The notes beneath the pieces were generated by a model. It saw only the letters and a list, made by a program, of their open reading frames with translations. It searched no databases and was not told the DNA's origin. 64,000 nucleotides of DNA from Candidatus Harrisonbacteria bacterium CG10_big_fil_rev_8_21_14_0_10_40_38 (GTDB lineage Bacteria; Patescibacteriota; Minisyncoccia; UBA6257; 1-14-0-10-40-38), in the NCBI GenBank assembly GCA_002773535.1, contig PFAZ01000001.1, forward strand, positions 241,579-305,578, given 5' to 3'. Each line of letters starts with the position of its first letter. Positions within the stretch are counted from its first letter, which is position 1. This document shows positions 6,464 through 61,500 of the stretch, piece by piece. Made by a program: the position numbers and the translations under genes.

Positions 6464-6886
6464 TCAGGAAGTCTGCTCCGTTTTATCTTCCTCCGGCTTT
6501 GCAGTTTCTGGGTTTTCCTGCTCTACAGTCTGCATATCCTCTGTTTTTTTCTCGTCATCCGAATTCTGGGAATCCATTTCCATCTCTGCCTCCACAGACT
6601 CTTTGGTAGCATCTACAGACTCTCCAGAAACCCCCGAGGCCTCTTCAACAACCGGCGCCTGAACAGCCTCAGCTGCCCCAACATCAGTCTTTTCCATCGC
6701 TTCTGGCTTATAATGTTTAGTTCTCTCGGGTTTAGTATAAACCCCACACTGTATACAGGCCTTATGAGGCAAAACAGGCCCTTTGCACTGCAAGCAAACC
6801 AAAATCTTAGCCGGTTTTAAGGCTAAGTGTGCTCGGCGTCTGCCAACCTTCGATTTAGAATGATGTTTTACTGGAACTCCTCCCAT
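6464..6886 (-). CDS. rpmF: 50S ribosomal protein L32 with a long acidic C-terminal extension
   Basis: MGGVPVKHHSKSKVGRRRAHLALK... CLQC...C..CG matches the zinc-ribbon L32. The start is the internal Met at 6884-6886. About 80 extra acidic residues follow the L32 domain. Confidence 0.75.
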   Translation of the reverse strand: MGGVPVKHHSKSKVGRRRAHLALKPAKILVCLQCKGPVLPHKACIQCGVYTKPERTKHYKPEAMEKTDVGAAEAVQAPVVEEASGVSGESVDATKESVEAEMEMDSQNSDDEKKTEDMQTVEQENPETAKPEEDKTEQTS

Positions 6887-7009
6887 AAAAAAAGTAACGT
6901 AACAATAATCGAAATGCGCCAGTGTGTCAAATAATCCATAAAAACCAACAAAAAAATAGAAACTAAAAATAAATATCGGCAAGGCTTTTTTCCACACCCA
7001 CTAACCGAC

Positions 7010-12125: not shown

Positions 12126-12692
12126 TCAGGTTGTAGTCGCTACAGGAGTTTCTTCTGTCTTTGTCTTCGACTTATCAACAACGCCTGCGCCACTGTCCGA
12201 CTTCTCTTCCGTTTCTTCAATCTCACCCTTGACGCTCTCTGGCTTCATCACCCCATCGAATAGATCTTTAACCGAAGCACTATAGCACTCCGAGGCAAAA
12301 TATGACATACGACAAGCAGCAACTTGAGGCGTGAATCTGAGAGCTTCAGCCAATTTCTGGAAAACCCTCGTCTTCTGCTCCTCTGAAAACTCCGACGAGC
12401 GAACAAAAAAATTCTCAATCTCGGACATGAGCCACATGACGCGACTTATATTATTCGCGCCACACGCCTCTTCGTAATTACCTTCACATGTTGCCCTCAC
12501 CATTGAGCCAACAACAGTAACTGCATCTTCGAGGTTCAGTGCACCTATGCGCTCAGCAGTTTCGGAAGGGCTCTCTGCTCTGCCTTTGGGAATCACCCTA
12601 AGCCTCTGTATGAAAGTACCCAAAACCCTCCAGGTATCGCGAATCACAATTCGTCCACCCTGTTCCGCAGGTTGTTTTTCGCCGTTCGCCAT
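12126..12692 (-). CDS. hypothetical protein in a GC-rich patch
   Basis: 188 aa. Strong SD AAGGAG 7 nt upstream of the ATG (rc of 12693-12712). GC content is well above the genome average. No family recognised. Confidence 0.5.
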   Translation of the reverse strand: MANGEKQPAEQGGRIVIRDTWRVLGTFIQRLRVIPKGRAESPSETAERIGALNLEDAVTVVGSMVRATCEGNYEEACGANNISRVMWLMSEIENFFVRSSEFSEEQKTRVFQKLAEALRFTPQVAACRMSYFASECYSASVKDLFDGVMKPESVKGEIEETEEKSDSGAGVVDKSKTKTEETPVATTT

Positions 12693-12780: not shown

Positions 12781-14244
12781 CTAAGTCCTCTCACGAATCA
12801 TTCTTTGTAGCACTTCAGGATTCCCCTTCCCTTTGAGTTCTGCCATTGCCTTTCCAACGAGAAACTGCAATGCATTTTCCTTCCCGTTTTTAAAATCACT
12901 GACAGCCGAAACATTTGTTTCAATCACTCTTCGCACAACATCCAAAAGCGCTTCTTCATCAGAAATCTGATGTAAATCCTGTTCCTTAAGTACCGTATGC
13001 GGATCAGCTCCAGTCTGCATCATTGAACGCAATATATCTTTTGCTGATCTACTTGAAACCGTATTGTGAGAGATTAGCTCAACGAGATCAGCAAAATTTT
13101 CAGGCGTGATTTTTAATTCCTCAAATTTAATTCCATTTTCTATCATAAGTCCTCGAAGATCAGAAGTAAGATAGTTAAAAAGAAGCTTTATCTCCTGCGC
13201 CAAGTTTTGGTTGTCTTCGCTCATAAGTTCCGAAACAGAATCTTCAAAATGCGAAGCGAGACGAGGATCAGAAACAAGAAGATCCGCCTGTGGCTCACTC
13301 AAATCAAATTCTTTTGCAAACCTTATCCGCTTCTGAGCAGGAAGTTCTGGTATTGATAATTTAATATCGTTAAGAGGAAATCTCGACAAATCCAATGGCG
13401 GCAAATCCGGTTCCGGGAAGTATCTATAATCATGTGCCTCCTCTTTTGTTCTTTGCGACACTGTCTCACGCGAAGATTCATTCCATCCCCTTGTTTCATG
13501 TTTTACCTCGCCACCTTCTTCCAAAACCATTCGCTGTCTCTGTAGCTCATACTCAATAGCATCATGAACCGCGCGAAAAGAATTAATATTTTTTACTTCA
13601 ACTTTTGTCCCAAAAACAAGTTCTCCGTCATGAATTTTTCCCAAACTCACATTTGCCTCAACTCTCATCTGCCCCCTATCCATATCCGCATACGAAACCG
13701 ACAAATATCGCAAAATAAGTTGCAACTCTTTTGCAAACGCAACTGCATCATCCGCATTTCGTATATCCGGCTCTGTTACAAGCTCCATGAGCGGCACACC
13801 TGCCCTATTAAAATTAACCAGACTTGAATCACTTTTGGAATTTAGTGCTTGTAATTTGGAGTTTTCGTGTGTGAGCGCTCCCGTATCTTCCTCCAAGTGA
13901 ACTCTCCTCAGTCGGACTCCTTTTAGAACTCCTCCAAAAACAAGGGGCTGATCATATTGTGAAATCTGATATGCCTTTGGCAAATCAGGATAAAAATAAT
14001 TTTTCCTATCAAATTTTGAAACCGCGGGAATATCTCCCTGCAGAGCCATGCCAACTTTGATAACTGACTCAATAGCTTTTTTATTCGCAGTCGGCATCGC
14101 CCCGGGATGAGCAAGGCATATGGGGCAGACATTAATGTTTGGATGCTCCTCATCGGGATCGTTTTTGCAATCACAAAACATCTTGGTCTTTGTATCAAGT
14201 TCTGCGTGAATTTCAAGGCCTATTACAGGCACATAAGTAGCCAT
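12781..14244 (-). CDS. gatB: Asp-tRNA(Asn)/Glu-tRNA(Gln) amidotransferase subunit B
   Basis: N-terminus MATYVPVIGLEIHAELDTKTKMFC is the GatB signature. 487 aa. Confidence 0.9.
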   Translation of the reverse strand: MATYVPVIGLEIHAELDTKTKMFCDCKNDPDEEHPNINVCPICLAHPGAMPTANKKAIESVIKVGMALQGDIPAVSKFDRKNYFYPDLPKAYQISQYDQPLVFGGVLKGVRLRRVHLEEDTGALTHENSKLQALNSKSDSSLVNFNRAGVPLMELVTEPDIRNADDAVAFAKELQLILRYLSVSYADMDRGQMRVEANVSLGKIHDGELVFGTKVEVKNINSFRAVHDAIEYELQRQRMVLEEGGEVKHETRGWNESSRETVSQRTKEEAHDYRYFPEPDLPPLDLSRFPLNDIKLSIPELPAQKRIRFAKEFDLSEPQADLLVSDPRLASHFEDSVSELMSEDNQNLAQEIKLLFNYLTSDLRGLMIENGIKFEELKITPENFADLVELISHNTVSSRSAKDILRSMMQTGADPHTVLKEQDLHQISDEEALLDVVRRVIETNVSAVSDFKNGKENALQFLVGKAMAELKGKGNPEVLQRMIRERT

Positions 14245-14355
14245 AGAACGCTTCTAATAATAACGAAAATTTGGCCTGAAAAAAAGTTTACCAAAACAGT
14301 CAAATCTGTTAACATTCCCCCAGCACCAAAACAACCAAACAAGAGAGGGAGTACC

Positions 14356-14973
14356 ATGCAAGAACGAGGAGTTTTTATTACTCTCGAAGGCATCGACGGA
14401 TCTGGTAAATCAACTGTTGCAAATCTACTTGAAGTGCTTGCTTTACAAGACGGCAGAATGCGTTGTGTCACTACAATGGAACCAACAGATGGTCCAACAG
14501 GAAAACTCATCCGAGATAAACTAGAAGGTAGATCACCGATCGAGAGCAACGAAGCTCTTCAAAGACTCTTCATCGAAGATCGTCTCGAACACGTAAATGA
14601 CTTCATTAGACCACATCTCAAAAGAGGATATCTCGTAATATCCGACAGGTACTGACTCTCGACACTCGCCTACGTCATGCTCACGGAAAGCGCTGACACA
14701 TTCATTGCGATCCATGAAGAAGTATTTGAAGGAAAGTTTCTTAAGCCACACCTTAGCTTCATCCTCGACCTATCAGTCCAAAAAGCTATGGAAAGAATCA
14801 TGTCTCGCGGCGAAGGATTCGACCATTTCGCAAAACAAGAGAAACTCGAAAAAATCAGAGTCAATTATCTTGAACTTTCAAGAACGCTACCTGACATCAT
14901 AGTGATGTCAGCAGAATTGAAACCAAAAGAAATTGCGAGAACAATCTGGTTCTATATCCAACCCCTTCTATAG
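14356..14973 (+). pseudogene. tmk: thymidylate kinase interrupted by one in-frame TGA at 14653-14655 (pseudogene or recoded/read-through)
   Basis: ITLEGIDGSGKST P-loop, ...ISDRY, then TGA, then LSTLAY... in the same frame. The DRYx(D/L)S(S/T)LAY motif is contiguous across the stop. The C-terminal lid region is intact (ORF 14677..14973). Confidence 0.6.
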
Positions 14974-14987
14974 AAAGGAAGAAGACA

Positions 14988-15773
14988 ATGAAAAGAGTAA
15001 AACCTGGGGTGTTTCTACTTTCGAGCCCAGAAATCGACGAAAATGCACTCGGAGAATACCTCGAATGGCTTGGCGCACTAGAATGGGAATCTGATGCCCC
15101 AAGTGACGCCGAGCTCATACCCGAAGTAGCAGGAAGGCTCTGCTACCGCAGCTTCGCGCCCGGACTCAATCCGAACGTGAAAAAGGTCCGAGGATCGAAC
15201 AAGGAATACTTAGAACACATTCTCGAAGTCGGCCACGGTTCGGTTCTCGAGCACGGAATGCTGACCTTCATCATCGTGAATGCTTCAAGAGTGTTCACGC
15301 ACGAATTGGTTCGCCACCGAGTCGGAGTTGGTATCTCGCAAGAAAGCCTACGATTCGTCCGCCTCACCGACCTCTCTTTCTGGGAGCCCGAATGGGCCCT
15401 CGAAGACACTGAGCTACAGCAACGAAATACCGAAATCATACGCCTCCTAGAGGAACATCAAGACTGGCTGGCGAAACACTTCGGTCTCGACGAAAGTGGG
15501 ATCAAATTCGAAGAAAAAAAGAAAAAAACATCGTACATGCGACGTTTTGCTCCCATCGGTCTGGCAACATCGATCTGCTGGTCATGCAACTTCAGAACAC
15601 TCCGACACGTGATCGAGATGCGTACGCATCCCGCAGCAGAAGAAGAGATAAGACTCATATTCGGTATGATCGCCAAGATAGCCCAGGAACGATATCCAAA
15701 CATCTTCGGCGACTATGAAGTCGAAATCATTGACAACCTCCCTCACTACAAAACACCTCATCGCAAGGTGTAA
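14988..15773 (+). CDS. thyX: flavin-dependent thymidylate synthase ThyX
   Basis: ThyX signature RHRxxxxxxSQESLRF (ELVRHRVGVGISQESLRFV). The region is GC-rich. Confidence 0.8.
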   Translation: MKRVKPGVFLLSSPEIDENALGEYLEWLGALEWESDAPSDAELIPEVAGRLCYRSFAPGLNPNVKKVRGSNKEYLEHILEVGHGSVLEHGMLTFIIVNASRVFTHELVRHRVGVGISQESLRFVRLTDLSFWEPEWALEDTELQQRNTEIIRLLEEHQDWLAKHFGLDESGIKFEEKKKKTSYMRRFAPIGLATSICWSCNFRTLRHVIEMRTHPAAEEEIRLIFGMIAKIAQERYPNIFGDYEVEIIDNLPHYKTPHRKV

Positions 15774-15846: not shown

Positions 15847-16956
15847 CTAAAAAGATTTAAATTGTTTTGAAAGTCTTGGTGCATTAAATAACGAAGCATA
15901 ATTTGAATCTGGTAATATGTCGTAAGAAAGACTCGGTACTTCTGCCATTCTTTCAAATCTAATTTTCGCAACAGGTTGGTTTTTGCGAAAAGTAAGTGGT
16001 TCAAAAGGCCTTACCTCAAGAACAAGCCTCCTACCAACACCATCTCCACCATTTCCATACCCCCAACCAGGATCAATATACCCAGCATAATGAGAACGAA
16101 ACTCACCCGATCTGGCATCCATAGGAATCATTTCGCAAGCAAGATGAGATGGCACACGGACACATTCATCCGTCTGGAGTATATAAAATCTCCCCTGACG
16201 CAATTTAATAATCCCATCACGAGCCGCAATCGGACGAAAAAACTCTTCAGGTTCATACGCACCAATTTTAGAAAGATCCAAGATCTTATCTCCCTCAAGA
16301 CTCTCCCATCCAGAAATTTCAGAAGAAATCGCCAAAGTCAGTATTATAGAACCATCGCCATCCTTAACTGAAAAATTTTTATATTCAAATGGTTTTTGAG
16401 AGTCAAATTCCCAAAGAAGTTTATCCTTGTCAAAACTTTCAGTAAGATCATTTTCATTAAAACCCGTATCACTATTAAAAAATCTTATTTGCGAAAGAGA
16501 CATTCCATTCTCCATTTTAATAGCAAAAGAATTCGGCTGGATCACAAGCCAAAGTTCACCCGAGAAACCAGCGGGAGCAACAGTATCAAATCTCGACACA
16601 CCATCGGCGATAACACGAACCTGAATATCGTTTCTGCCTACACTCGATTTTGGATTACAATATGCAAAAACATCAGCCGGAAGTTTTAAAGACTCAGAAA
16701 GTTTCACAATATACGTCACTCCCCGCTCTAAAGGGGAAGAAATATTGTGAGGCAAAGCAGAAACAAGAGGAAGAAGATCCCGAACTTTCTCCCCGGATCG
16801 CGGCTGAAAAATTCCATCAATCCTATAAATCTCATCACTAATAGCAAGATCAAGTGAAGCAGGACGAATCCGTTTGGTATCTGATCCTTCAATCGAAGAA
16901 GAGTCCATGAGAGCACGAATCATTTGAGATGAAAAAGCACCAAAGCGATTAGGCAT
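15847..16956 (-). CDS. dcd: long-form dCTP deaminase family protein (dUTPase-fold)
   Basis: IRPASLDLAI near the N-terminus and GYIDPGWGY...LVLEV...P..L..G..VAKIRF near the C-terminus match the dCTP deaminase trimer motifs. About 370 aa with a middle insertion. Start set at the internal Met (16954-16956). Confidence 0.6.
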   Translation of the reverse strand: MPNRFGAFSSQMIRALMDSSSIEGSDTKRIRPASLDLAISDEIYRIDGIFQPRSGEKVRDLLPLVSALPHNISSPLERGVTYIVKLSESLKLPADVFAYCNPKSSVGRNDIQVRVIADGVSRFDTVAPAGFSGELWLVIQPNSFAIKMENGMSLSQIRFFNSDTGFNENDLTESFDKDKLLWEFDSQKPFEYKNFSVKDGDGSIILTLAISSEISGWESLEGDKILDLSKIGAYEPEEFFRPIAARDGIIKLRQGRFYILQTDECVRVPSHLACEMIPMDARSGEFRSHYAGYIDPGWGYGNGGDGVGRRLVLEVRPFEPLTFRKNQPVAKIRFERMAEVPSLSYDILPDSNYASLFNAPRLSKQFKSF

Positions 16957-17090
16957 ATGCCATATATTAGCACTCAAATAATCGCAATAAAAGCACAACA
17001 AAAATTTGACAAAATACACATTTATCAATAATCATATACTCGACACCTAAAGAACTCACACAAACTCTTTCATAGAAAAGGTCGGATAAG

Positions 17091-17435: not shown

Positions 17436-17573
17436 CTTCCCCGTATTACTCTATAGAGGCTATCGGAGGCAAAATGCAACATTGGTATCTCTAAAATTAC
17501 ATTTTGCCGAGATGCAGGAGTCACTCACTGCTCAAAGTGAGTGAACTCCGACTCTAGAGAGTAATATGGGGAA
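17436..17573. repeat. structured repeat element Y, copy B
   Basis: Core 17458..17551 is near-identical to 1858..1950. Its own closing stem cttccccgtattactctatagag / ctctagagagtaatatggggaag is about 23 bp with 2 mismatches. It lies directly downstream of the rplK stop, where rplA would normally be. Confidence 0.6.
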
Positions 17574-22846: not shown

Positions 22847-23818
22847 GTGAGAAGTTTCAAAACGGTCAAAGTCGTCTGCTTTGGTGGAGGCACTGGTCTT
22901 CCCGCTCTCCTATCTGGTCTCAGAGAAAACAAATGGCTCAAGATCACTGCCGCCCCAACCGTTTTCGACAACGGCGGAAGTTCGGGGGCATTAAAGGACT
23001 CACACGGCATCTTACCACCCGGAGACGTTCTACGATGCCTCTTGAGTCTCTCTGAAGATGAGGCAGTTGCAAGAAAAATTCTTTCAGCAAGAATTGAAAT
23101 TGAATCTGCCCCACGCCATACAGCTGGAAATCTTCTTTTACTCGGCCTACAGATGGTTTTTGAAAACGACTACCAGCTTTCAATTGACTCACTCGGAACT
23201 GCTTTGCACATACACGGGAGAGTCTGCCCTGTTTCATGCGAAAAAAGCACTCTCGTAGCCAACTATCACGACGGAGTAACTATAAAAGGCGAAATTCAAA
23301 TAGACGAAAAACTCCGCGAAGGTACAGCGCCAAAATCGCTTTCCCTCGACCCACAAGTTGAAGGAAATGAAGCGCTAATATTGGCAATCAAAAAGGCAGA
23401 CATACTCTGTATTAGCTCTGGTAGTTTTTTCACAAGCATTCTTCCTTGCTTTCTCCCAAAAGGAATCAAAGAAGTAATCCAAGAAAGCCCTGCACCAGCC
23501 ATCTTCATTTCAAACATCCTCACTGAAGGCATGGGGATGAATCACGAATCTGTAGAGTCCATGACCCGAACCGTAGAAGAGTATATCGGAAAAAGAGTCG
23601 TCAGAATCGTGATAAATGACAAGGTTCACGATGACGCCATGGGAAGATACGCGCAAGAGGACAAAAATCCAACAAAGTATGACAAAGAAAGCAACGACCC
23701 GCGATTCATTACCGGAGAGTTCTGGCAAGACTCAGAACTCGCAAGACACGACTCACGCCTCCTCGGATCAGCAGTAAGTAAACTGATCCATGAACTCACA
23801 AACCCCTCCCCTCGATGA
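22847..23818 (+). CDS. YvcK/CofD-family (UPF0052) protein
   Basis: N-terminal VVCFGGGTGLPALLSGL and DNGGSSG motifs. GTG start with GGAG 10 nt upstream. Confidence 0.65.
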   Translation: MRSFKTVKVVCFGGGTGLPALLSGLRENKWLKITAAPTVFDNGGSSGALKDSHGILPPGDVLRCLLSLSEDEAVARKILSARIEIESAPRHTAGNLLLLGLQMVFENDYQLSIDSLGTALHIHGRVCPVSCEKSTLVANYHDGVTIKGEIQIDEKLREGTAPKSLSLDPQVEGNEALILAIKKADILCISSGSFFTSILPCFLPKGIKEVIQESPAPAIFISNILTEGMGMNHESVESMTRTVEEYIGKRVVRIVINDKVHDDAMGRYAQEDKNPTKYDKESNDPRFITGEFWQDSELARHDSRLLGSAVSKLIHELTNPSPR

Positions 23819-27182: not shown

Positions 27183-27638
27183 ATGTCACTAAAGATTCCC
27201 TACCAAAAACAAGAAAATGATTACTACTGTGGCCCCGCTGTCCTATCAATGGCTCTCGGTTATTTTGGTAAAAAAATTTCTCAAAAAGAAATCGCAAAAA
27301 TAACAAAAACAAAACCACCCCCATACGGAACAAGAAACTCCGAAATAGTTAAATTTCCAAAAAAATTTGGATTTAAGTCAGTAGTAAAGAAAAACGCGAC
27401 GATAAAAGATATAGAAGAATCGCTAAAGAAAAAATATCCAATAATAGTAAATTACGTAGAACCCGAAGATGAGATAGGACACTTCGCAATAGTTAAGGGA
27501 TTAACAAAAAATAAAATCATTCTTTACGATCCTTGGCATGGGCCAAGCTTTTCATTAGAGAGAAAAGATTTTTTAAAGCGCTGGCACAATCACAGAAACA
27601 CAATAAAACGCTGGATACTCAAAATTTATCCAAAATAA
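27183..27638 (+). CDS. standalone C39-like papain-fold cysteine peptidase domain protein
   Basis: YYCGPAVLSMAL (catalytic Cys), GHFAIV (His) and DPWHG (Asp) match the peptidase C39 triad layout. 151 aa. Confidence 0.6.
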   Translation: MSLKIPYQKQENDYYCGPAVLSMALGYFGKKISQKEIAKITKTKPPPYGTRNSEIVKFPKKFGFKSVVKKNATIKDIEESLKKKYPIIVNYVEPEDEIGHFAIVKGLTKNKIILYDPWHGPSFSLERKDFLKRWHNHRNTIKRWILKIYPK

Positions 27639-27679: not shown

Positions 27680-28129
27680 ATGCTTCTCAAAATCCCCTAC
27701 GAAAAACAAAAGAACGAATATTTCTGCGGGCCTGCAACTCTTGCAATGTGTTTAAAATATTTCGGTAAAGATATTTCACAGGAAGAGCTCGCTATCATTG
27801 CAAAAACAACCGAAAAAGAAGGTACTGCAAATAGAGAAATGCTAAATGCCATTTTAGAGAGTGGTCTTATTGGTGTTACAAAAAAACGCGCACGCATAAA
27901 AAACGTTAAAAATTCAATCCGAAAAAAAAGACCAGTAATAGTAAATTACACAGAACCGGAAGGTGGCATAGGCCATTACGCAATTCCTATTGGAATAAAA
28001 AACGGGAAAATTATTCTCGCCGATCCTTGGCATGGACCAAAATTTCAAATTAACCAAAATCAATTCAAAAAACTTTGGTTAAACAACTCAAAAAAATCAC
28101 CTCGTTGGATGCTCAAAGTTATAAAATAA
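27680..28129 (+). CDS. standalone C39-like cysteine peptidase domain protein. Paralog of 27183..27638.
   Basis: YFCGPATLAMCL, GHYAIP, DPWHG. About 45% identity to the neighbour. Confidence 0.6.
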   Translation: MLLKIPYEKQKNEYFCGPATLAMCLKYFGKDISQEELAIIAKTTEKEGTANREMLNAILESGLIGVTKKRARIKNVKNSIRKKRPVIVNYTEPEGGIGHYAIPIGIKNGKIILADPWHGPKFQINQNQFKKLWLNNSKKSPRWMLKVIK

Positions 28130-33537: not shown

Positions 33538-34134
33538 TTAAAATTCTCTAGCACTAATTGTTGTCTGAATATCAGTAAACACCCCATTTAAGGCATCTCT
33601 TTCCATTTTGGTACCAACCTGCATAATCATTGTAATTCTAGGAGGCCACGGACCATTACCCAAAATCTTGTCCTCTAGCAAAAATCCAAATCTCGTAATA
33701 CGAACATTAAACTCGCTGGTTATCGGCAAAAATCTACCCTCAGTGTCACTTCTTCTCTCAATAACTTCGTTATTTACCCTATAAACTATTTGCTCCCCGT
33801 GAGCATTTTCGAACATAAGACGAGCCCCACTAGCAGGATTTGCGGGATCACATACCCAACTATTTCCTTGTTGGATCGGAATACAAAAATTTATTCCCGT
33901 TCTTAACTCTCTCGCTATTTGTTCCAAAACAAGACTAGCATTATCATTTGCGGTCATAAGAGCCATGATCCTTCTCTGCGCTCTTAATGAACCTATAAAA
34001 ATATTACTTATAAGACCAATGAGTATCGCAAAAACAGTCATCGACACAAGAAGTTCAACTATTGTAAAACCCCTCCTCTTTCGAGCAAAGATTTTTCCAT
34101 CAAATAACTTATTTTTTAAAAACTTAAATTTCAT
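33538..34134 (-). CDS. minor pilin / pseudopilin (prepilin N-terminal methylation motif)
   Basis: RRGFTIVELLVSMTVFAIL. Confidence 0.7.
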   Translation of the reverse strand: MKFKFLKNKLFDGKIFARKRRGFTIVELLVSMTVFAILIGLISNIFIGSLRAQRRIMALMTANDNASLVLEQIARELRTGINFCIPIQQGNSWVCDPANPASGARLMFENAHGEQIVYRVNNEVIERRSDTEGRFLPITSEFNVRITRFGFLLEDKILGNGPWPPRITMIMQVGTKMERDALNGVFTDIQTTISAREF

Positions 34135-34137
34135 AAA

Positions 34138-34764
34138 TTATGGAGTTCTCCATGGCAAAAAATGATCCTGTAACTGCACAAAATACTTCCCACCTCTACT
34201 TTCCCAGCCAACAGCTGATGTCACACTATAGTCCAAGTCATTCCCCGTCCCATTGTATGGATCATAAACAATTACTATTCTTTTAAACCTAGTATCAACA
34301 CCTCCAACGTCGTTTGAATAAAGACCGAAATTATTTATTTTAAGATATCTCACCGCATTACAACTGGTTAATATATCCTCTACCACAGCCTGCGTCGGAG
34401 GCCCACCGCTATATTGCGGACAAGAAATGGCATTAAGCGAGGTGTCGTTATAATCAACAAGATAAAGTCCCGCAGGAATTCCACCAGCAACTCCACTTCC
34501 CCATCCATAAAAATTACCCGAACCATTCTGATGAACTAAAAGATAGCTCCTATCATAGAAATTTTTAACAACCTCAATTCCCTCAGCGGCAAGATAAGCA
34601 CCAACATGAGAATCAGCATTTACCCTGTTTAAACCCAATGACTTACTAACCAGAGTCAAAATCCCTAAAACAGCAACAATTACGGCTGATACTGAAATCA
34701 TAAGCTCAATAATCGAAATCCCATCCTTATTTCTTATTTTTTCTCGCAAACAAAAACTAAACAT
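34138..34764 (-). CDS. minor pilin (prepilin-like N-terminus)
   Basis: KDGISIIELMISVSAVIVAVLG. Start set at the internal Met. Confidence 0.55.
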   Translation of the reverse strand: MFSFCLREKIRNKDGISIIELMISVSAVIVAVLGILTLVSKSLGLNRVNADSHVGAYLAAEGIEVVKNFYDRSYLLVHQNGSGNFYGWGSGVAGGIPAGLYLVDYNDTSLNAISCPQYSGGPPTQAVVEDILTSCNAVRYLKINNFGLYSNDVGGVDTRFKRIVIVYDPYNGTGNDLDYSVTSAVGWESRGGKYFVQLQDHFLPWRTP

Positions 34765-34765
34765 A

Positions 34766-35476
34766 TTATTGCAAGGTTTGGCATGAAATATTTTTTTGCG
34801 TAACCTGACCAAATTTATTTATCTTTATCCTCGAACACCTGCTTTCATCCAAAAGACTAAGAATTATGTACGCCTCTGTATGGTTAAGGGTATCGCTTTG
34901 AGAAGTAAGAGCAACTGTTGGGTCAGGCGGCTGAAAAACTACGCTCATCTCACCCAAACCACCCGGACACGCAAGATTATCTAAACTCAAACACTTTATC
35001 CTAACAGAAGGAGGTAAGATAAAATCTTGCAACCTCTGGTCAGGTCCTCCAAACTCACCATCGTACCTACCAATTCTCGGGTCATTCAGGTCACACCCAA
35101 CAAAACCGCTAGCCGACAAATCTCTAAACAAAGCAAACCCCTGAGGATCATTTCTGCCAAGCAGAGATCTATGTACATACACACCCCAGCCGCATACAAG
35201 TTCCTGCGGTGTATTCGGTGGAAACTGTGTCGGCTGAAAGGTTTCGAGCGAAGAAGCTTTTGCTCTAAGTAGCGTACTTAAAAAAAGTGAAGTCTGATTA
35301 TAAAAAACAATCTGGTCATCAGATTTTCTGGAATACACAAGCAGTATGGATGTAAAAATAACCGTTATCGAAATAACAACAATAAGCTCAACGAGAGTAA
35401 ATCCTTTTTTTGAACTAAATTTTTTCTCTAAAAATTTAAATCTCACAAATAATTTAATTTTATGGAAATAAAGCAA
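34766..35476 (-). CDS. minor pilin (prepilin N-terminal motif)
   Basis: KKGFTLVELIVVISITVIF. Confidence 0.65.
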   Translation of the reverse strand: MLYFHKIKLFVRFKFLEKKFSSKKGFTLVELIVVISITVIFTSILLVYSRKSDDQIVFYNQTSLFLSTLLRAKASSLETFQPTQFPPNTPQELVCGWGVYVHRSLLGRNDPQGFALFRDLSASGFVGCDLNDPRIGRYDGEFGGPDQRLQDFILPPSVRIKCLSLDNLACPGGLGEMSVVFQPPDPTVALTSQSDTLNHTEAYIILSLLDESRCSRIKINKFGQVTQKNISCQTLQ

Positions 35477-36350
35477 AGTATCCGTTAATTATATCAACCC
35501 CAAAAAACACGATCATAAGCGTCCCGGTAACAATAAAAGGACCAAAAGGCACCTTTGAAGAAAATTTTTTCTCCTTTTGCACCATCATAAGTATACTCCA
35601 AATAGAACCTGTAATGAATGCAAGAGCAAGCGCCAAAATAAGATCAGGCCAACCTAAAAGAAAACCAAGCGCTCCGGCGAGCTTAACATCACCCATCCCC
35701 ATCCCTCTTCCTTTGGTAAAAACCACTATTAGACCAAAAAATAAAATCCCAACAAAAACCGCAAATATTCTATTCCCCGCAACAGATGAATGAAACCCAA
35801 AAAGCGAAGCATAATGACTAACAAACGAACCCATAAAAGGACCAAAAGACCCAAGAAAATAAATACACACAGAGGTAGCAATACCGATAAGCATGATTAA
35901 AAGATTGCTCTGATCAGGAATAATAAAAGTTCTTGCATCAACGGCTGCAATAAAAATCAAAGTAAGGATCGCCAACCCAAACAACAAGTACAAAGCCCAT
36001 GTTAAAAACAACACCCAAAAACCGGAAATAGCTAAAAATTGAAAATTAAAAGCATCTGAAACAACATTTAGTAGAAACATCATAGAAAGACCAGAAGATA
36101 ACTCAACAATCGGGTACTGCAAAGAAAGTTTTGTCTTGCAGATTCTGCACTTACCTCTAAGAAGTAAAAAACTTAAAACTGGAACCATTTCAAAAAATCT
36201 AATCACCCTTCCACACGAAGAACAATGAGACCTCCCTAAAATCCGCCTTGAAAAAATAGGCTTTTCCGGATCATATCGAAGTGCTAAAACATTTATAAAA
36301 CTCCCAAAAGAGACCCCTAAAAGCAAAAGAAAAAATTGCAAAAGTGTCAT
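35460..36350 (-). CDS. pilD: prepilin peptidase (A24 family)
   Basis: N-terminal Cys-x-x-Cys pairs, polytopic membrane protein, conserved Asp-containing motifs (GMGDVKLAG). Confidence 0.8.
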   Translation of the reverse strand: MTLLQFFLLLLGVSFGSFINVLALRYDPEKPIFSRRILGRSHCSSCGRVIRFFEMVPVLSFLLLRGKCRICKTKLSLQYPIVELSSGLSMMFLLNVVSDAFNFQFLAISGFWVLFLTWALYLLFGLAILTLIFIAAVDARTFIIPDQSNLLIMLIGIATSVCIYFLGSFGPFMGSFVSHYASLFGFHSSVAGNRIFAVFVGILFFGLIVVFTKGRGMGMGDVKLAGALGFLLGWPDLILALALAFITGSIWSILMMVQKEKKFSSKVPFGPFIVTGTLMIVFFGVDIINGYFALFP

Positions 36351-36356
36351 ATTAAG

Positions 36357-37007
36357 CTATCTCTGAAATACACATTCTGTATTTCCAATACAATATGACT
36401 TACTAGTATCATCACACTGCCAACCAGCCGGAAAAATAGTTTTATCATTTTGACCAGGATTTCCACCAGGAAAACCAGGTTTATTTCTTTTACTCTCCGG
36501 ATTGCTTCCATCACCAATAATATCAACATTATCAAGTTCACCAGCGCCGCTAAGCAACCTACTATCCGACTCAAAAGTCGCCTTCAATATATAGCACTGT
36601 GCCCTCGGCTGAAGACCATCTTTTAATTGAACATAATACCCATAAGTACGCGACTGAAGCGGATCTCTCGGAATAGAATCCACTCCTATTTTCGCTACGC
36701 TAAAAGTATTTTCCAATTCAACCCAGTTATCAGGATTAGTAGCTGAAGGATTTCCATCATTTATACCACCAACACAATGAGAAGGCGTTGCTGAAGGATC
36801 ATATCCACCAGGATAAAAACCGCACTTATTTTTAAAAAGCTCTAGCGCCTGTTGCACGATCTGAAGATCAACAACGCGCCTATTATCCCTCACCTGAGAA
36901 CGAGCACCTGTAAGTCCAATGATCAAAAAAGATGCAAGGATACCAATAATACCGAGTACTACTAACATCTCAACCAACGTAAAACCAGTTTCCTTACTAT
37001 TTTTCAT
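36357..37007 (-). CDS. pilA: type IV pilin
   Basis: MKNSKETGFTLVEMLVVLGIIGILA. Confidence 0.8.
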   Translation of the reverse strand: MKNSKETGFTLVEMLVVLGIIGILASFLIIGLTGARSQVRDNRRVVDLQIVQQALELFKNKCGFYPGGYDPSATPSHCVGGINDGNPSATNPDNWVELENTFSVAKIGVDSIPRDPLQSRTYGYYVQLKDGLQPRAQCYILKATFESDSRLLSGAGELDNVDIIGDGSNPESKRNKPGFPGGNPGQNDKTIFPAGWQCDDTSKSYCIGNTECVFQR

Positions 37008-37078
37008 AAATTACAAACTAATTATAAACGAAAAGAACCAGTTTTTACACCGGTCCCTTTCAAATACAAACCTAAACC

Positions 37079-37594
37079 CTACAAAGAAACGCAATAGTAC
37101 CAGTTTGGATTTGTCTCAGGAGTTGCACCACACAATACTCCATTACTAGTTCCATCAATATCATCCTTTAGAGCCTGATTATCACTCTCAAGCCAAGCAC
37201 CAATAGTATATTTCTGCCTACCGATTCCTGGGGATGTATCAACGCCGTACTGATAATTTCTATCAGTGCTATTTGGATCTTTTGGAAGATTTGAAACTCC
37301 AACAGAAGCACCTGTTATAGCAGAAGTAAGAACAGTCCAGTCGTTTGGATCAGTATATGCACCAGGAGTTGGATTTCCGGCGTCAATACACGCCGCACCT
37401 CCCGGATAATGACCACACTTATTAAAGTACAACTCCAAAGCACTTTGCACCTGTCTTACGTCACCAATCCTTCTTGCGTCTCTTCCTGCTTGCCTTGCTC
37501 CACCAAGTGATACAAGAAGCGCAGCAGCGAGAATACCAATAATCGCAATAACGATTAGAAGCTCAATAAGTGTAAAACCTTTTCTTTTTGTCAT
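37079..37594 (-). CDS. pilA: type IV pilin (second paralog)
   Basis: MTKRKGFTLIELLIVIAIIGILAA. Confidence 0.8.
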   Translation of the reverse strand: MTKRKGFTLIELLIVIAIIGILAAALLVSLGGARQAGRDARRIGDVRQVQSALELYFNKCGHYPGGAACIDAGNPTPGAYTDPNDWTVLTSAITGASVGVSNLPKDPNSTDRNYQYGVDTSPGIGRQKYTIGAWLESDNQALKDDIDGTSNGVLCGATPETNPNWYYCVSL

Positions 37595-37785
37595 TCTGAA
37601 AATTTTAAATTAACTGACAACTGACGACTCGCGGCCATGGCGTACGCGATTCCAATTAAGTTCAATAGTCGTCAACTGTAAGATTAATCAAAAAAAAATT
37701 ACTCGACCTTTCTTTCATTGGTTACAACAAAATTATACCAAAACTCTAACCAATATAAAATCAAAGATACTCACAGTTATAAAAT

Positions 37786-38997
37786 CTATCGAATAACCTG
37801 AACAAGATTATAAATCGGAAGAAGTATCGCCGCAAAAAGAAACGCAACCATAATTCCAAGAAATACCATGATAACCGGCTGAATAAGCTCCGTGATATTT
37901 GAAACAACATTTTCAACCTCACGGCTATAAAAAGTACCAATACGAACAAACATCTCATCAACTTTTCCAGTCTGCTCACCCACAGTTATCATTTGGTTCA
38001 CTATCGGAGGGAAATAGGCTCCATATCGCGCAAAAGACTGTGACATGAGTTCTCCTCGCCTCACTCCTTCCGCAACATCATGAAGCATCTCACGGTAAAG
38101 TGCGCTACCTACAGTGTGTCCACCTATTTCAATTGCTTGCGCTATAGGTATGCCGCCTTTAATAAGAACACTTGCGATCTCGGCAAATCTTGCAACATAA
38201 AGTTTTTTAAAAAACTTTCCTAAAATCGGCGCGGTAAGAAGTATCTGGTCACGAATAGCCTGCCCCTCGTTGCTTCTTAGATAATCAATAAGAATTAACG
38301 TAAAAACAATAAAGAAAACAATTATCGCAATCCACCAGTTGTTTATAAAATTACCCAAAACTAGAAAAATCCTAGTAATAATTGGAAGATCAACTTCCGA
38401 CTCTTCAAACAAAGGCGCAATCTGTGGAAACACAACGCCGATTAGAATTCCGCCAACTATGACAGCTAAAACAACAATAAAAGCAGGGTAAATAAGGGCA
38501 TTTTTCACTTTACCCAAAATAACTAGTTGCCTTTCAAGGTAATCAGCAAGATAAACCATTGCCCTCTCGACACCACCGGTAACCTCTGCAGACTGAATAA
38601 GATTTATATAAAACTCAAAAAATATATCATCGTGCCTTGCCATCGCTTGCGAAAGTGTAAGCCCCGAATCAACATCATTTGAAATATCAACCAACGCCGC
38701 CCTAAGAGCGCTGTTTTCTGTCTGATAATAAAGCGCTTTCAAGGCATCATGGATAGATATTTTTGCCTCGAGCATTGTTGCAAACTGTCGGGTAAAAATA
38801 GCAAGATCCTTTTCCTTTACCCTATGAAGAAACCCAAACAAGCCCGTATACCAGGGTGCCTTTTTCGCTTTTTCGAGGCTTAGAATAAAAAGCCCATGAC
38901 TTGTAAGAACATTGAGGGCAGACTCTTTGTTTACTGCATCAACAAACCCTACCTGAAGCTCGCCCTGTTTTGTTCGCGCGCTATATCTGAACTTCAT
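37786..38997 (-). CDS. pilC: type IV pilus platform protein (GspF family)
   Basis: Two GspF repeats, 403 aa, polytopic. Confidence 0.8.
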   Translation of the reverse strand: MKFRYSARTKQGELQVGFVDAVNKESALNVLTSHGLFILSLEKAKKAPWYTGLFGFLHRVKEKDLAIFTRQFATMLEAKISIHDALKALYYQTENSALRAALVDISNDVDSGLTLSQAMARHDDIFFEFYINLIQSAEVTGGVERAMVYLADYLERQLVILGKVKNALIYPAFIVVLAVIVGGILIGVVFPQIAPLFEESEVDLPIITRIFLVLGNFINNWWIAIIVFFIVFTLILIDYLRSNEGQAIRDQILLTAPILGKFFKKLYVARFAEIASVLIKGGIPIAQAIEIGGHTVGSALYREMLHDVAEGVRRGELMSQSFARYGAYFPPIVNQMITVGEQTGKVDEMFVRIGTFYSREVENVVSNITELIQPVIMVFLGIMVAFLFAAILLPIYNLVQVIR

Positions 38998-39005
38998 AAT
39001 GAAAT

Positions 39006-40079
39006 TTAAACTCTATCTAAAAGAATACGCAATTCCGAAGGATTTAATGAATAAAGCTCCGCATTCTCAAGTGAAATCTGTTTTTGTTTCACAAGAGTAG
39101 ACAATGACCTATTAAGCGTAATCATGCCCTCCTGAAGCGAAGTCTCAATAACCAAATCTATTTGATATGCCTTTCTCTCACGAATAAGATTCCTGATTGC
39201 AGAATTAACCACCATGATTTCATATGCGGGAATCCTACCACCACCAACATGTGGAATAAGACGCAGTGAAACAATTCCCACAAGGGTTGCGGCAAGCTGA
39301 CTAGTCACCTGACCCTGCTGACCTGGTGGAAAGCTATCGATTATACGATCAATTGTTTGTGCAGCAGAGTTTGTGTGAAGTGTTGAAAAAACCAAGTGAC
39401 CTGTTTCAGCCGCAGTCATCGCAGTAGCGATAGACTCCGGATCTCGCATCTCGCCGATCATAACAACGTCCGGATCCTGTCTCAAAAGAGACCTCAAAGC
39501 ATTATGAAATGTCGGAGTATCCATCCTAACCTCACGCTGGGAAATAATTGACCTATCCTGAACAAACAAATATTCAATCGGATCTTCAACCGTAATTATG
39601 TGTTCTGTTCTCTTGTGATTTACTTCATCAACAATGGCAGCAAGAGCCGTAGATTTCCCATGGCCAGCAGGACCCACAAAAAGCACGAACCCTTGGGAAA
39701 TTTTTGTGAAATCATGAAGTATTGATGGCAGATTTAACTGTTCAATAGTTTTGATTTTTGTTGGAATCGTCCTAAGAGCAGCTGCATAAAATCCTTTTTG
39801 AAAAAAAACATTGACCCTAAAACGCGCCTTATCCTCAAGAGCATACGAAAGGTCAAGTTCTTTTTTTTCTAAAAACCTCTGCTTCTGCTCATCAGTCAAT
39901 ATAGACATTACAAGACCCTGAGCTATTTCAGGTGTTACAACCGGTTCCTGTTCAATTCCAACAAGGGCGCCGTCAATTCTGAGATTTGGTTTCTTCCCAA
40001 CAGCTATATGCAAATCCGAAGCATTCTGCCTAACAGCAGCGCTCATAAGTTCGTGAAATTTTTTCAAAAAATCATCCAT
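39006..40079 (-). CDS. pilT: twitching-motility retraction ATPase
   Basis: Walker A GPAGHGKST. Asp box and His box. 357 aa. Confidence 0.8.
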   Translation of the reverse strand: MDDFLKKFHELMSAAVRQNASDLHIAVGKKPNLRIDGALVGIEQEPVVTPEIAQGLVMSILTDEQKQRFLEKKELDLSYALEDKARFRVNVFFQKGFYAAALRTIPTKIKTIEQLNLPSILHDFTKISQGFVLFVGPAGHGKSTALAAIVDEVNHKRTEHIITVEDPIEYLFVQDRSIISQREVRMDTPTFHNALRSLLRQDPDVVMIGEMRDPESIATAMTAAETGHLVFSTLHTNSAAQTIDRIIDSFPPGQQGQVTSQLAATLVGIVSLRLIPHVGGGRIPAYEIMVVNSAIRNLIRERKAYQIDLVIETSLQEGMITLNRSLSTLVKQKQISLENAELYSLNPSELRILLDRV

Positions 40080-40096
40080 AAGATAAACAAATTATA

Positions 40097-41875
40097 TCAC
40101 AACTCCTCAGTCTCTTTGAGTACATCCTCAATGTTAACAAGTCCATCAAGAGCCTTTAATATTCCATCCTGTCTAAGAGTAATCATTCCCTGTCTTCTAG
40201 TTTCCTCTAAAATCATATTTTCGTTAAATTCCGGCTTGACCATTAAATCCGCCAACTGTGAAGTCATTTCATATATTTCAAAAATTGCAATTCTGCCAAC
40301 AATTCCTTTTTTCTTACATACAGCACACCCCGTCGTCGTATACAGTTGATACGGCTCCTTGTAAGCCCCCCTGATCTCTGGTGGCAATTTTTGCAGCTCT
40401 TCTTTGATAATTTTTGCTAATGTCTCAGGCGCAGGTTTTGGCTTTTTGCAATTCTGGCAAATCTTAGAAATAAGACGCTGAGCAGCCATGGCATTAACAG
40501 CAGAAGGAAGTAAAAATGGCTGCGCTCCTAAATCAACAAGTCTTGGAATAACACCAATTGCGTTATTTGTGTGGAGTGTCGAAAGCACAATGTGGCCAGT
40601 AAGAGCAGCATGAACAGCCAAATCAGCCGTCTCACTGTCACGAATCTCACCTACCATGATTACATCAGGGTCTTGCCTCAAAATCTGCCGCAAACCTGAA
40701 GCAAAGTCATAACCTATTTCAGGTCTTACCTGCGATTGGTTAATTCCTTCTATCGTATACTCAACAGGATCCTCAAGAGAAAGGATATTTACTTCTTCAG
40801 TATTTAAAATACGCATCAAGGCATATAGCGTAGTAGTTTTACCAGATCCCGTAGGTCCTGTAAGAAGGACAATTCCATAAGGTTTATTAACACTCGATTT
40901 AAGTATCTCAAGACTTTTACCTCTGATACCCAAATCAGTAAGATCTTTAAGACCCACCGCCGGATCAAGAACACGAAGTGCTATTTTTTCACCATTTGGA
41001 GTAGGAAATGTTGCAACACGAAAATCAATCTCTTTTTCAAAAATTATTGTCCTAAACCTTCCATCCTGTGGGACACGTGTCTCATCAAGTTTCATATTAG
41101 ATAAAACTTTTACACGCGATGCTATAGCCGGGCCAAGTTCCGCCGGTAAAGCAGTAAATTCCTGCAAATCGCCATCAATACGAAAACGCACTCTGGTTTT
41201 AGTTCTACCCGGTTCAATGTGAATATCTGACGCTTCCATATTAACCGCTTCTTTGAGTAAAGAAGACGCAATACGAATTATTGGCGCATCATTAGCTCCA
41301 GAAGAAAGCCCTTCTTCAAGTTTGATAACTTGCTGAAAAGTCGTTGCTTCCTCGCCAGGTTTTCTCTTGAGAGCCCGAAGAGCCGACTCAATCTCATCGG
41401 CAAATGGCGAATATTTTCGCAAAACAGCATTAATGTCTGACGGCGTAACAATATAAACACCAATACTAAGTTTCTGCTGCGTAGCCAAAAACCTTAAAGC
41501 TTGTTGAGCATTTGGATTATCTGGATGAACCATTCCAACAACAAGCAAAGAGTCCTTTTTTGAAAGAGGAATCATCTGGTAAGATCTCGCAGTATCAGCA
41601 GGGATAATTTTTATCGTTTGATCGTCAATTGTATCCAGATCAATTTTTTTATATGGAATTTTTAAAATTCCGCTCTTTATCTTCGCAACTTCCGATTCTT
41701 CTACTAAGTTCTGACTATAAACAAGATCTTCAACATCTCTTTTAAGCTGTGCACTCTCGGTCAAAAGCCGCTTTGCGTCATGATCAGATATTATATTTTT
41801 TGCAACTAATGCAGAAATTAGATCTTGATTTTGCATAATAAAAAAAACATTGCGCGTTAAGGCAATAACAGGCAA
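40097..41875 (-). CDS. pilB: type IV pilus assembly ATPase (GspE family)
   Basis: Walker A LLTGPTGSGKTTTLYA. A C-terminal tetracysteine. An alternative start at MQNQDL (41834-41836) is possible. Confidence 0.85.
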   Translation of the reverse strand: MPVIALTRNVFFIMQNQDLISALVAKNIISDHDAKRLLTESAQLKRDVEDLVYSQNLVEESEVAKIKSGILKIPYKKIDLDTIDDQTIKIIPADTARSYQMIPLSKKDSLLVVGMVHPDNPNAQQALRFLATQQKLSIGVYIVTPSDINAVLRKYSPFADEIESALRALKRKPGEEATTFQQVIKLEEGLSSGANDAPIIRIASSLLKEAVNMEASDIHIEPGRTKTRVRFRIDGDLQEFTALPAELGPAIASRVKVLSNMKLDETRVPQDGRFRTIIFEKEIDFRVATFPTPNGEKIALRVLDPAVGLKDLTDLGIRGKSLEILKSSVNKPYGIVLLTGPTGSGKTTTLYALMRILNTEEVNILSLEDPVEYTIEGINQSQVRPEIGYDFASGLRQILRQDPDVIMVGEIRDSETADLAVHAALTGHIVLSTLHTNNAIGVIPRLVDLGAQPFLLPSAVNAMAAQRLISKICQNCKKPKPAPETLAKIIKEELQKLPPEIRGAYKEPYQLYTTTGCAVCKKKGIVGRIAIFEIYEMTSQLADLMVKPEFNENMILEETRRQGMITLRQDGILKALDGLVNIEDVLKETEEL

Positions 41876-41894
41876 AAACCACTCATATTAAAAA

Positions 41895-42188
41895 TCAAAG
41901 AGGCTGAAATGGATTATCCCGCCCAAGCGTGCCTATTGACGGTGGTCCGACAAAAACCTGTAAAGCCCGAAACGCCGGCAAACCTAAAACATCATTGGGT
42001 TTTATCGAGCTTACTGAACCAATACGCTCTGCCTGCTCCAAAGGTTCAGGCAAAACAACATCCAGTTGAGGAGAAGGAGCAAAAAATAGAAAATATGCCG
42101 CGAAAATCACAAAACCGACAATAAATAGAACAAAAAGAAGTTTTATCCAATTAATTTGCTTTTTCTCCTGTTCAAAAACAATAGCCAT
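41895..42188 (-). CDS. small pilus-cluster membrane protein
   Basis: 97 aa, single TM. Sits between pilO and pilB. Confidence 0.4.
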   Translation of the reverse strand: MAIVFEQEKKQINWIKLLFVLFIVGFVIFAAYFLFFAPSPQLDVVLPEPLEQAERIGSVSSIKPNDVLGLPAFRALQVFVGPPSIGTLGRDNPFQPL

Positions 42189-42193
42189 ATTTT

Positions 42194-42760
42194 TTAATCT
42201 TGATAATAAGCATGTAATACGACGTCGTAGGTATAGTTTTGGTCAGGCGGAGAAACAGATATCGTAAAAGAATCAACATCTAAAACACGAATATTTCGCT
42301 CAATCGAAGAAAGAAATCTTTCAAAATTCTGATAAGTTCCTTTAACCTGAAGCCTCACCTGAATCGACTGCAAAACAGGAATCACATCTGACGAACCACT
42401 ACCTGTCGCAAGAGATGGTAAGATATTAAAGTCCAGAGAAATCAAGGAAAGACCAAGTGACTGACTAAGAGAGCTTATCTGGTTAGTAAGTGTTGGATAA
42501 TCAATTCCATCAGGTATTGCCAAAGAAACATTCTGTTTGTAAGTCGCTATATCCCCTTGGGAATCTCGTATAGCTTGGGTAAGACTCTCAACGATTTCAG
42601 TCTGTCTATCGACAGCAGCCTTTTTAGAAGAAAGCTCTCCTCTTAAATCATTTATTTTTGAATACTCCGGCCTAACCAAAAGACCATAGACAAAAAACGA
42701 AGCGACTAAAAGAAGTAAACTTATAAGAAGTGTTGCGAATCGACTTGTTGAAGCATTCAT
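42194..42760 (-). CDS. pilO: PilO-like pilus assembly protein
   Basis: N-terminal TM then coiled-coil. Position after pilN. Confidence 0.6.
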   Translation of the reverse strand: MNASTSRFATLLISLLLLVASFFVYGLLVRPEYSKINDLRGELSSKKAAVDRQTEIVESLTQAIRDSQGDIATYKQNVSLAIPDGIDYPTLTNQISSLSQSLGLSLISLDFNILPSLATGSGSSDVIPVLQSIQVRLQVKGTYQNFERFLSSIERNIRVLDVDSFTISVSPPDQNYTYDVVLHAYYQD

Positions 42761-42771
42761 AATTTTAAAAT

Positions 42772-43326: not shown

Positions 43327-43327
43327 T

Positions 43328-61164: not shown

Positions 61165-61500
61165 CTAGCCGAAAACTTTTAGGTCTTTTAGTAAATTGAC
61201 TACTGCAACTAAAACACCTATGCCCCCTATAATCGCAGCGACCCAAGTTGCATTGCGAATAGACCTCGTTAGCTTTTCAGAAGATTGAGATGATTTGTTT
61301 AGTTCATCAGTAAGGTGTTCTATCGCTTGGTTTGGGTTTCCAGCAACATGCTTCGTGTGATGAAACCAAACCATCTTCCATAAAAAAGTATCCTTCTTGT
61401 CTTGCTCAGACATGGATGGCCATTTCTCTCGAAGCTCTTTTATTTCTTGGTCGTCTCCAAACATTTTATTTGTTGAGATGGAATGTACCATCTTCTGCAC
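61165..61500 (-). CDS. hypothetical protein with a C-terminal TM anchor
   Basis: 111 aa. Overlaps the end of the putative endonuclease gene. Confidence 0.35.
   Translation of the reverse strand: MQKMVHSISTNKMFGDDQEIKELREKWPSMSEQDKKDTFLWKMVWFHHTKHVAGNPNQAIEHLTDELNKSSQSSEKLTRSIRNATWVAAIIGGIGVLVAVVNLLKDLKVFG

Follow-up and report, generated by a model that had tools for sequence, protein, structure and literature searches.

A classical instance of UGA being read as tryptophan is the A1 protein of phage Qbeta, a conserved, extended and functional isoform made by read-through. Stop codons that interrupt a bacterial gene have also been described in other settings. In-frame stops under purifying selection are widespread among bacteria, if short-lived (PMC7918605), and the so-called pseudo-pseudogenes of Salmonella Typhi and Paratyphi A (PMC9122581), like those of a prokaryotic survey (PMC7918605), combine a single G>A in-frame stop with a gene that is otherwise intact and conserved. 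The Salmonella examples are mostly UAG, and those in-frame stops that are translated are enriched for C at positions -1 and +4 (PMC9122581). In Escherichia coli, a premature TGA is the leakiest stop and is read mostly as tryptophan by the near-cognate tRNA-Trp(CCA); reporter read-through medians range from 0.7 to 6% according to stop identity (as relative fluorescence at one position), values of up to 14% have been cited, and read-through is detected in more reporters at low temperature and is promoted by nutrient scarcity too (PMC11126739). The base that follows the stop matters as well, since a C at +4 leads to inefficient bacterial termination, especially at UGA, and a U at this position to efficient termination (PMC5289835). 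Finally, the patescibacterial family JAKLIH01 uses code 4, in which UGA is reassigned to tryptophan: it has no UGA at the ends of its coding sequences, lacks RF2, carries a tRNA-UCA, and is supported in this assignment by hundreds of Pfam columns (PMC13092985).

Here we describe an in-frame TGA in the thymidylate kinase gene (tmk) of a Candidatus Harrisonbacteria genome from groundwater, found in a 64-kb stretch of DNA that was analysed as a whole (hereafter, the window). Harrisonbacteria presumably belong to Minisyncoccia, the class of JAKLIH01. Like the pseudo-pseudogenes, tmk carries a single G>A in-frame stop in a gene that is otherwise intact and conserved, its TGA has a C at both -1 and +4 as in the translated Salmonella stops, and it appears as a young, population-level allele for which low full-length expression would be expected. 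Unlike the Salmonella cases, the stop is UGA, the enzyme is normally essential, the genome is a reduced CPR genome, and the case is known at the level of sequence. The near-cognate decoding seen in E. coli, which mainly inserts tryptophan, would regenerate exactly the residue that relatives have at this position (Trp100). In contrast to read-through of the Qbeta type, the stop lies within the gene, is conserved in no relative and is not accompanied by a stimulatory element. The likeness to JAKLIH01 consists of a UGA at a conserved tryptophan in the same phylum and class; the difference is that at least six genes in the window terminate with UGA and that a single UGA stands for tryptophan against 140 TGG codons. 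We are confident that the codon stems from a derived TGG>TGA nonsense transition, private to this population, that hit the conserved Trp100 in a genome that uses the standard code and in which TGA is a working terminator.

The tmk frame runs from 14356 to 14973 on the forward strand (Table 1). As the first-pass annotation had seen in the sequence, codon 100 is TGA and the next base is C, and the same frame continues past it (...LVISDRY-stop-LSTLAYVMLTE...) until a TAG at 14971-14973. The homology is likewise contiguous across the stop, in agreement with that annotation: of the Pfam Thymidylate_kin profile (PF02223, 185 positions), the part upstream of the stop matches positions 1-88 (E=2.5e-20) and the part downstream matches 91-185 (E=7e-10), while the conceptual protein, with one residue replacing the stop, aligns end to end with the Thermus thermophilus enzyme (PDB 5x7j; residues 5-205 versus 3-197 of 198, E=4.6e-23). 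Since the profile matches lie on either side of the TGA, we conclude that a single codon is all that breaks what is otherwise one tmk gene. It retains the hallmarks of the family, namely a match to the whole profile, the P-loop GxxGxGK[ST] (EGIDGSGKS) and the DR[YH] motif (DRY), and lacks an uninterrupted reading frame. The Thermus enzyme is the closest solved structure and shares with it the P-loop, DRY motif, LID region and overall length, the difference being the break in the frame at codon 100. A scan for promoters and terminators around the tmk operon returned counts that were not above those of shuffled controls. In the ENA assembly, the gene caller replaces the interrupted gene by antisense ORFs of 108 and 72 amino acids (window 14223-14549, reverse strand; L001 3546-3764, reverse strand), calls that are probably spurious and due to the in-frame stop.

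Table 1. Coordinates of the interrupted tmk gene, its neighbours and the best supported TGA-terminated genes of the window.
Feature	Position	Strand	Remarks
Shine-Dalgarno-like GAGAGGGAG	14343-14351	+	5' of the tmk ATG; -8.5 kcal/mol duplex with a generic anti-SD, among the strongest of the window
tmk codons 1-99, P-loop (EGIDGSGKS) to DRY motif	14356-14652	+	PF02223 1-88; invariant residues retained
In-frame TGA at conserved Trp100	14653-14655	+	Context TAC-TGA-CTC, C at -1 and +4
tmk codons 101-205 and TAG: helix LSTLAYV, LID region, C-terminal part	14656-14973	+	PF02223 91-185; no other lesion
Internal ATG (Met108)	14677-14679	+	Used by gene callers as start of a 98-aa 'C-terminal fragment' (NCBI COU07_01475 / PIR89550.1)
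thyX, FAD-dependent thymidylate synthase, intact, downstream operon partner	14988-15773	+	Pfam Thy1, E=1.2e-37
dcd, dCTP deaminase-like, intact pathway neighbour	15847-17028	-	Pfam DCD_N, DCD, DCD_C
L32-containing ORF, TGA-terminated	6464-6997	-	Well-supported TGA terminator (Pfam)
CofD, TGA-terminated	22847-23818	+	Well-supported TGA terminator (Pfam)
PilB-like ATPase, genuine TGA terminator	gene 40097-41875; stop 40097-40099	-	T2SSE match to 369/370 at residue 586/592; +4 T
Dam methylase, genuine TGA terminator	gene 62731-63651; stop 62731-62733	-	ATGA stop/start overlap with the next gene; +4 G

Comparison with related genes reveals what the codon used to be. Tryptophan occupies the site in each of the ten full-length Tmk proteins that are closest (40-55% identity), within the motif DRYWLSTLAYGM (DRYWLSTLAY), and more distant Tmk proteins have Y, L, M or V at the position of codon 100. 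At the DNA level, four of these ten, the syntenic orthologs in loci L009, L010, L011 and L012, uniformly read TAY-TGG-CTY. Their loci keep, wholly or in part, the gene order of the window (thrS-gatB, tmk-thyX, dcd-rplK-nusG-secE): tmk-thyX occurs together with dcd, rplK and nusG in L009, L011 and L012, and L010 has a different neighbour, ruvB. The adjacency of tmk and thyX is thus an arrangement kept in relatives, and the operon here is built as theirs. With TGG in the orthologs, the TAC-TGA-CTC of the window amounts to a single derived G>A transition, which supports the recent nonsense mutation that the first-pass annotation had listed among its options. By the same reasoning, the CTY leucine codon of the relatives shows that the C at +4 is ancestral and did not evolve for leakiness. 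This genome is richer in AT than those of its relatives (the GC content of tmk is 0.42, compared with 0.46-0.53), in keeping with GC>AT mutational drift. As for the neighbour, dcd encodes a 393-residue double-DCD protein (DCD_N and DCD_C), and the equivalent region in two relatives is called as two ORFs (L011 2288-3103, 210 and 49 aa; L012 1627-2975, 191 and 225 aa), an indication that the gene is split or has another architecture in those genomes.

The same allele is present in independent data. The 99-residue truncated product and the neighbouring thyX were found on contigs of ENA ERZ27293400 (173 kb), Logan SRR6240789, JGI 3300004209 and JGI 3300004208, and over 1.9-8.8 kb the contigs of these four independent assemblies match the window at 100% identity, the TGA included. 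In the NCBI record of the Candidatus Harrisonbacteria CG10_big_fil_rev MAG, the two halves of tmk are annotated as two hypothetical proteins, COU07_01470 and COU07_01475 (PIR89550.1). An exact-sequence look-up in about 15 billion proteins retrieved each tmk fragment on 4 contigs, whereas a full-length allele was absent for all of the residues W, C, R, G, L and S at codon 100. Two other samples yielded contigs over the right end of the window (L007 and L008), and these too are 100% identical to it. The population is clonal, and the TGA allele is fixed in every recovered copy. All copies being identical, there is no variation within the species from which conservation of the stop, or dN/dS after it, could be read. 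Recurrence of the TGA in independent assemblies, with no intact allele on record, shows that it is not an assembly error, and that option of the first-pass annotation is effectively refuted.

We then consider how stop codons are used around the gene. In the 58 confident ORFs of the window, TAA terminates 32, TAG 20 and TGA 6 (55%, 34% and 10%), and a looser, greedy ORF set gives 38, 25 and 9 for the same codons. As a trinucleotide, TGA occurs twice as often as TAG in the window (2420 versus 1254), yet TAG stops outnumber TGA stops. At least four of the genes that end in TGA do so with good support, from a domain boundary or a gene overlap. In the PilB-like ATPase, the ATG of the next (PilT-like) gene lies 18 nt downstream of the stop and the read-through frame meets another TGA within 12 codons; the end of the Dam methylase is called identically in other assemblies (L007, L008). 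The TGA stop of the ORF at 12126-12692 was dropped as evidence, since the ORF that takes its place in L009 encodes a protein that is not homologous. Just past the right end of the window, 3 of 11 genes are TGA-terminated (compared with 6 of 58 inside), and in the loci of the closest relatives TGA accounts for 11 of 22 stops, among them that of tmk itself in two cases. The earlier impression that all other genes stop at TAA or TAG is therefore not borne out: with a usage of about 10%, a sample of 15 genes has a chance of about 20% of containing no TGA stop, and the impression is a sampling effect.

Since TGA ends genes here, including one through an ATGA overlap, the genome is on the standard code. 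The first-pass annotation had judged genome-wide UGA reassignment unlikely because long ORFs are intact; it is excluded for the different and stronger reason that TGA terminates genes. A code 4 genome would be expected to lack UGA stops and to place many UGAs at tryptophan columns, but 6 of the 58 genes and three in the flank end in UGA, and a single in-frame UGA faces 140 TGG codons in the 58 genes. Code 25, which reads UGA as glycine in Gracilibacteria and Absconditabacteria, is contradicted by the tryptophan found at the site in all ten close relatives and, again, by the presence of UGA stops. Additional genes with in-frame TGA, which the first-pass annotation had named as the sign of a recoded genome, are absent from the window: among its roughly 60 genes, only tmk is split by a stop, the remaining same-frame ORF pairs being antisense or off-frame artefacts or neighbouring separate genes. 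The approximately 50 proteins that were scanned come from intact genes for housekeeping, type IV pili and glycans, and none of them showed an RF domain. The window encodes two tRNA-Met and one tRNA-Asp, and its right 10-kb flank encodes tRNA-Arg, tRNA-Ser, tRNA-Ala and a further tRNA-Ser; neither a tRNA-Trp nor a suppressor tRNA with a UCA anticodon, the latter a check proposed earlier, was found within the window and this flank. On the left side, the protein at the window's edge had no match on record. The taxids of the CG10 Harrisonbacteria are absent from the NAR 2026 supplements.

The stop is shared by no other sequence searched, and no recoding signals surround it. A degenerate DNA pattern encoding D-R-Y-TGA-L-S-T-x-A-[YFH] had no match in 185,579 GTDB species-representative genomes and two chance matches, both outside any tmk, in JGI metagenome contigs, a collection of incomplete coverage that missed the JGI contigs known to be identical. 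When the N-terminal Tmk fragment was searched against proteins, no other Tmk fragment ending at DRY came up, and a related-locus search with a single protein returned no relative among species-representative contigs, which do not include the source genome. RNA folding around and after the TGA was no better than in shuffled controls (z=-0.86) and gave no SECIS-like hairpin, and an Rfam scan of the window found only the three tRNAs and nothing at the tmk stop. Programmed read-through, another of the earlier options, is accordingly unsupported: the leaky UGA-C tetranucleotide is present, though its C is ancestral, but the stop is conserved in no relative (the orthologs have TGG) and there is no stimulatory structure. 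Selenocysteine insertion is also contradicted, both by the missing hairpin and by homologs that have tryptophan (or, when distant, Y, L, M or V) rather than cysteine or selenocysteine.

Apart from this codon, the gene shows no damage. The ratio of post-stop to pre-stop identity to relatives is 0.92, compared with 0.93 ± 0.15 among the relatives, and conserved columns are kept at 26 of 28 sites in the half that precedes the stop and at 22 of 26 in the half that follows, where G107V, L119I, T134S and D185S have changed. There is no second lesion in tmk, and no Tmk paralog in the 64-kb window and its flanks. A single lesion, no downstream decay, and intact thyX and dcd are what a leaky nonsense allele would present, and they differ from the state of a decaying pseudogene; a pseudogene that is too young would show no decay either, so the intact downstream half could merely mean that the mutation is very recent. 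For the structural context, the model of the closest ortholog (P0002; pLDDT 95.6, pTM 0.90) was used as a proxy. In this model the tryptophan is the first residue of helix 97-104 (100-107 in the numbering used here), which follows immediately on strand 3 and the DRY motif, and the helix bears the invariant or near-invariant S102, A105 and Y106. The methionine at the internal ATG is ancestral, being present in relatives, and its Shine-Dalgarno score is +0.4 kcal/mol, a value of limited discrimination given that 34% of gene starts are equally weak, background ATGs are no worse and longest-ORF starts are unreliable.

Taken together, these observations lead us to lean towards a reading in which the TGG>TGA change is a nonsense allele and tmk is predicted to remain partly functional through leaky read-through, in the manner of a pseudo-pseudogene. 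According to this model, most ribosomes would stop at UGA-C and release an inactive 99-residue fragment, while a minority, plausibly 0.1-10% as in E. coli, would decode the UGA with the near-cognate Trp-tRNA(CCA). The tryptophan so inserted would be exactly the ancestral residue, and the product a wild-type, full-length Tmk. A low level of the enzyme may suffice in a CPR cell that grows slowly, where it would turn the dTMP supplied by ThyX, encoded intact next to it, into dTDP. A dedicated recoding signal would not be needed, and none is seen. Digested with trypsin, the read-through product would give the peptide YWLSTLAYVMLTESADTFIAIHEEVFEGK, or a variant of it with Cys or Arg. The earlier remark that the C following the stop creates a leaky context holds, UGA-C, the weakest terminator of bacteria, being confirmed here and a C at +4 being associated with inefficient termination in bacteria (PMC5289835), and this context together with misreading by tRNA-Trp makes some read-through to wild-type Tmk physically expected. 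The base at +4 of the nine genuine TGA stops (six in the window and three in the flank) is T in five, G in four and C in none, whereas that of the tmk TGA is C; this contrast is not significant (p ~0.15) and is suggestive only.

The same single codon can be read in other ways. One, which we hold to be a real if clearly less probable possibility, is that tmk is a true but young pseudogene: the TGG>TGA change would have inactivated it very recently, been fixed by drift or hitch-hiking in a clonal bloom, and left a gene that will decay, with dTDP or dTTP coming perhaps from host supply or from another kinase encoded elsewhere in the genome. Gene loss is common in CPR bacteria, the lesion is single, private and conserved in no relative, and a clonal population with zero diversity is consistent with recent fixation. 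That no recoding signal is seen, and that in-frame stops are usually brief (PMC7918605), would suit such a pseudogene as well. Yet tmk is near-universally essential and the product of the intact thyX, flanked by an intact dcd, would be useless without Tmk; neither a second lesion nor an excess of post-stop divergence accompanies the TGA, no paralog is encoded in the 64-kb window and flanks to take over, and some wild-type read-through is expected at UGA-C in any case (PMC11126739, PMC5289835). The fragments might instead be the enzyme. Short-range re-initiation after termination is known in bacteria, and split adenylate kinases complement each other experimentally. Ribosomes that stop at the TGA could thus restart at the ATG 21 nt downstream, so that pieces of 99 and 98 residues, both of which are predicted by gene callers, associate non-covalently. 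We consider such a two-piece enzyme quite improbable, given that the ATG is ancestral rather than a new start and has no Shine-Dalgarno sequence (a test that discriminates poorly in this genome), and that no other split Tmk was found in the pattern scans and the N-terminal fragment search. A fragment starting at Met108 would moreover miss residues 100-107, a complete helix in the ortholog model (pLDDT 95.6) with S102, A105 and Y106, which argues against a functional enzyme of this kind.

A further group of explanations places the anomaly in decoding or in the data. The UGA could be ambiguous, read both as stop and as tryptophan owing either to an altered tRNA-Trp (carrying the anticodon UCA, or CCA on an anticodon stem of 4 bp) or to weakening of RF2, an idea to which we assign a low probability; the tmk TGA would then, with the same low probability, be the first 'captured' sense UGA and an early intermediate toward code 4. 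Its appeal lies in the position of the TGA exactly on a conserved tryptophan, in TGA being the least-used stop (10%, against 34% for TAG), in the strong +4 T or G contexts of all the other TGA stops, and in the precedent, within the same phylum and class, of a UGA>Trp reassignment and of a UGA-reading tRNA-Trp with a 4-bp stem (PMC13092985). Against it, one UGA faces 140 TGG codons in 58 genes, TGA terminates 6 of those 58, including by the ATGA overlap, the +4 pattern (0 C in 9, p ~0.15) is not significant, and a share of 10% UGA stops is ordinary, with standard-code Minisyncoccia ranging from 4.6 to 25% (PMC13092985 Suppl. Table 2). Nor did the window and flank contain a tRNA-Trp or tRNA-UCA. 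It is very improbable that the true base is G and the TGA a sequencing or assembly artefact, for while the codon is only one base away from the ancestral TGG, the same sequence recurs in ERZ27293400, SRR6240789, 3300004209 and 3300004208 as well as in the NCBI MAG, and no TGG allele is recorded. Least credible of all are selenocysteine insertion and a genome-wide code 4 or code 25; all three use UGA, but the homologs have tryptophan at the site rather than cysteine, selenocysteine or glycine, no SECIS-like hairpin (z=-0.86) or Rfam match speaks for selenocysteine, and TGA terminates genes both here and in relatives, against either code.

Several other features of the window were observed in passing. 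An intergenic repeat of about 96 bp occurs at 1854-1949 and 17456-17551 in copies that are 98% identical and contain an internal inverted repeat (GGAGTCACTCAC...GTGAGTGAACTCC); it matches no Rfam family. A small mobile element, a REP-like element, or a terminator or regulatory hairpin common to both sites are possible identities. The ORF at 6464-6997 (reverse strand) is, with 177 residues, unusually long for ribosomal protein L32, its L32p domain being confined to residues 41-91, and may reflect a mis-called start, a fusion or a C-terminal extension. Two tandem paralogous genes for stand-alone C39-like cysteine peptidases of about 150 residues each lie at 27183-27638 and 27680-28129 on the forward strand. 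A complete type IV pilus cluster, typical of CPR episymbionts, occupies 33538-44401 on the reverse strand, with PilM-like, PilB-like and PilT-like proteins, PilC (T2SSF), a prepilin peptidase and several N-methyl pilins. At the right end, the region from 61466 to 63651, which extends past the window (L007/L008 1-9705), encodes the Dam methylase and a DUF6996/DUF6997/DUF7226 protein and continues with a serine recombinase (Resolvase/Recombinase/Zn_ribbon), an HTH_17 protein and a DUF5659 protein, adjoining a tRNA-Ser(TGA); it has the appearance of a mobile element or prophage that has integrated at a tRNA gene. On the forward strand the GC skew is negative throughout, strongly and evenly so (-5.5 cumulatively over 64 kb), and the reverse strand encodes most of the genes, which places the window inside a single replichore.

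The immediate consequence is a correction of the annotation: COU07_01470 and COU07_01475 are the halves of one tmk, and the genome is to be analysed with the standard code. The tmk TGA is a new example of a known and common event, the interruption of a bacterial gene by an in-frame nonsense codon that leaves the rest intact, and a single unconserved codon of this kind is not surprising. What it offers is a natural nonsense allele of a normally essential gene, fixed in a wild CPR population, at which the commonest misreading, of UGA as tryptophan, regenerates the wild type. Were Tmk activity found to persist, the gene would illustrate how leaky decoding of UGA can buffer TGG>TGA mutations in reduced genomes that drift toward AT, a tolerance that the ambiguous-intermediate model of UGA>Trp reassignment assumes. 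Should decoding in this lineage prove to be ambiguous, which we think improbable, it would be taking the first step towards code 4, a path whose end JAKLIH01 has reached independently.
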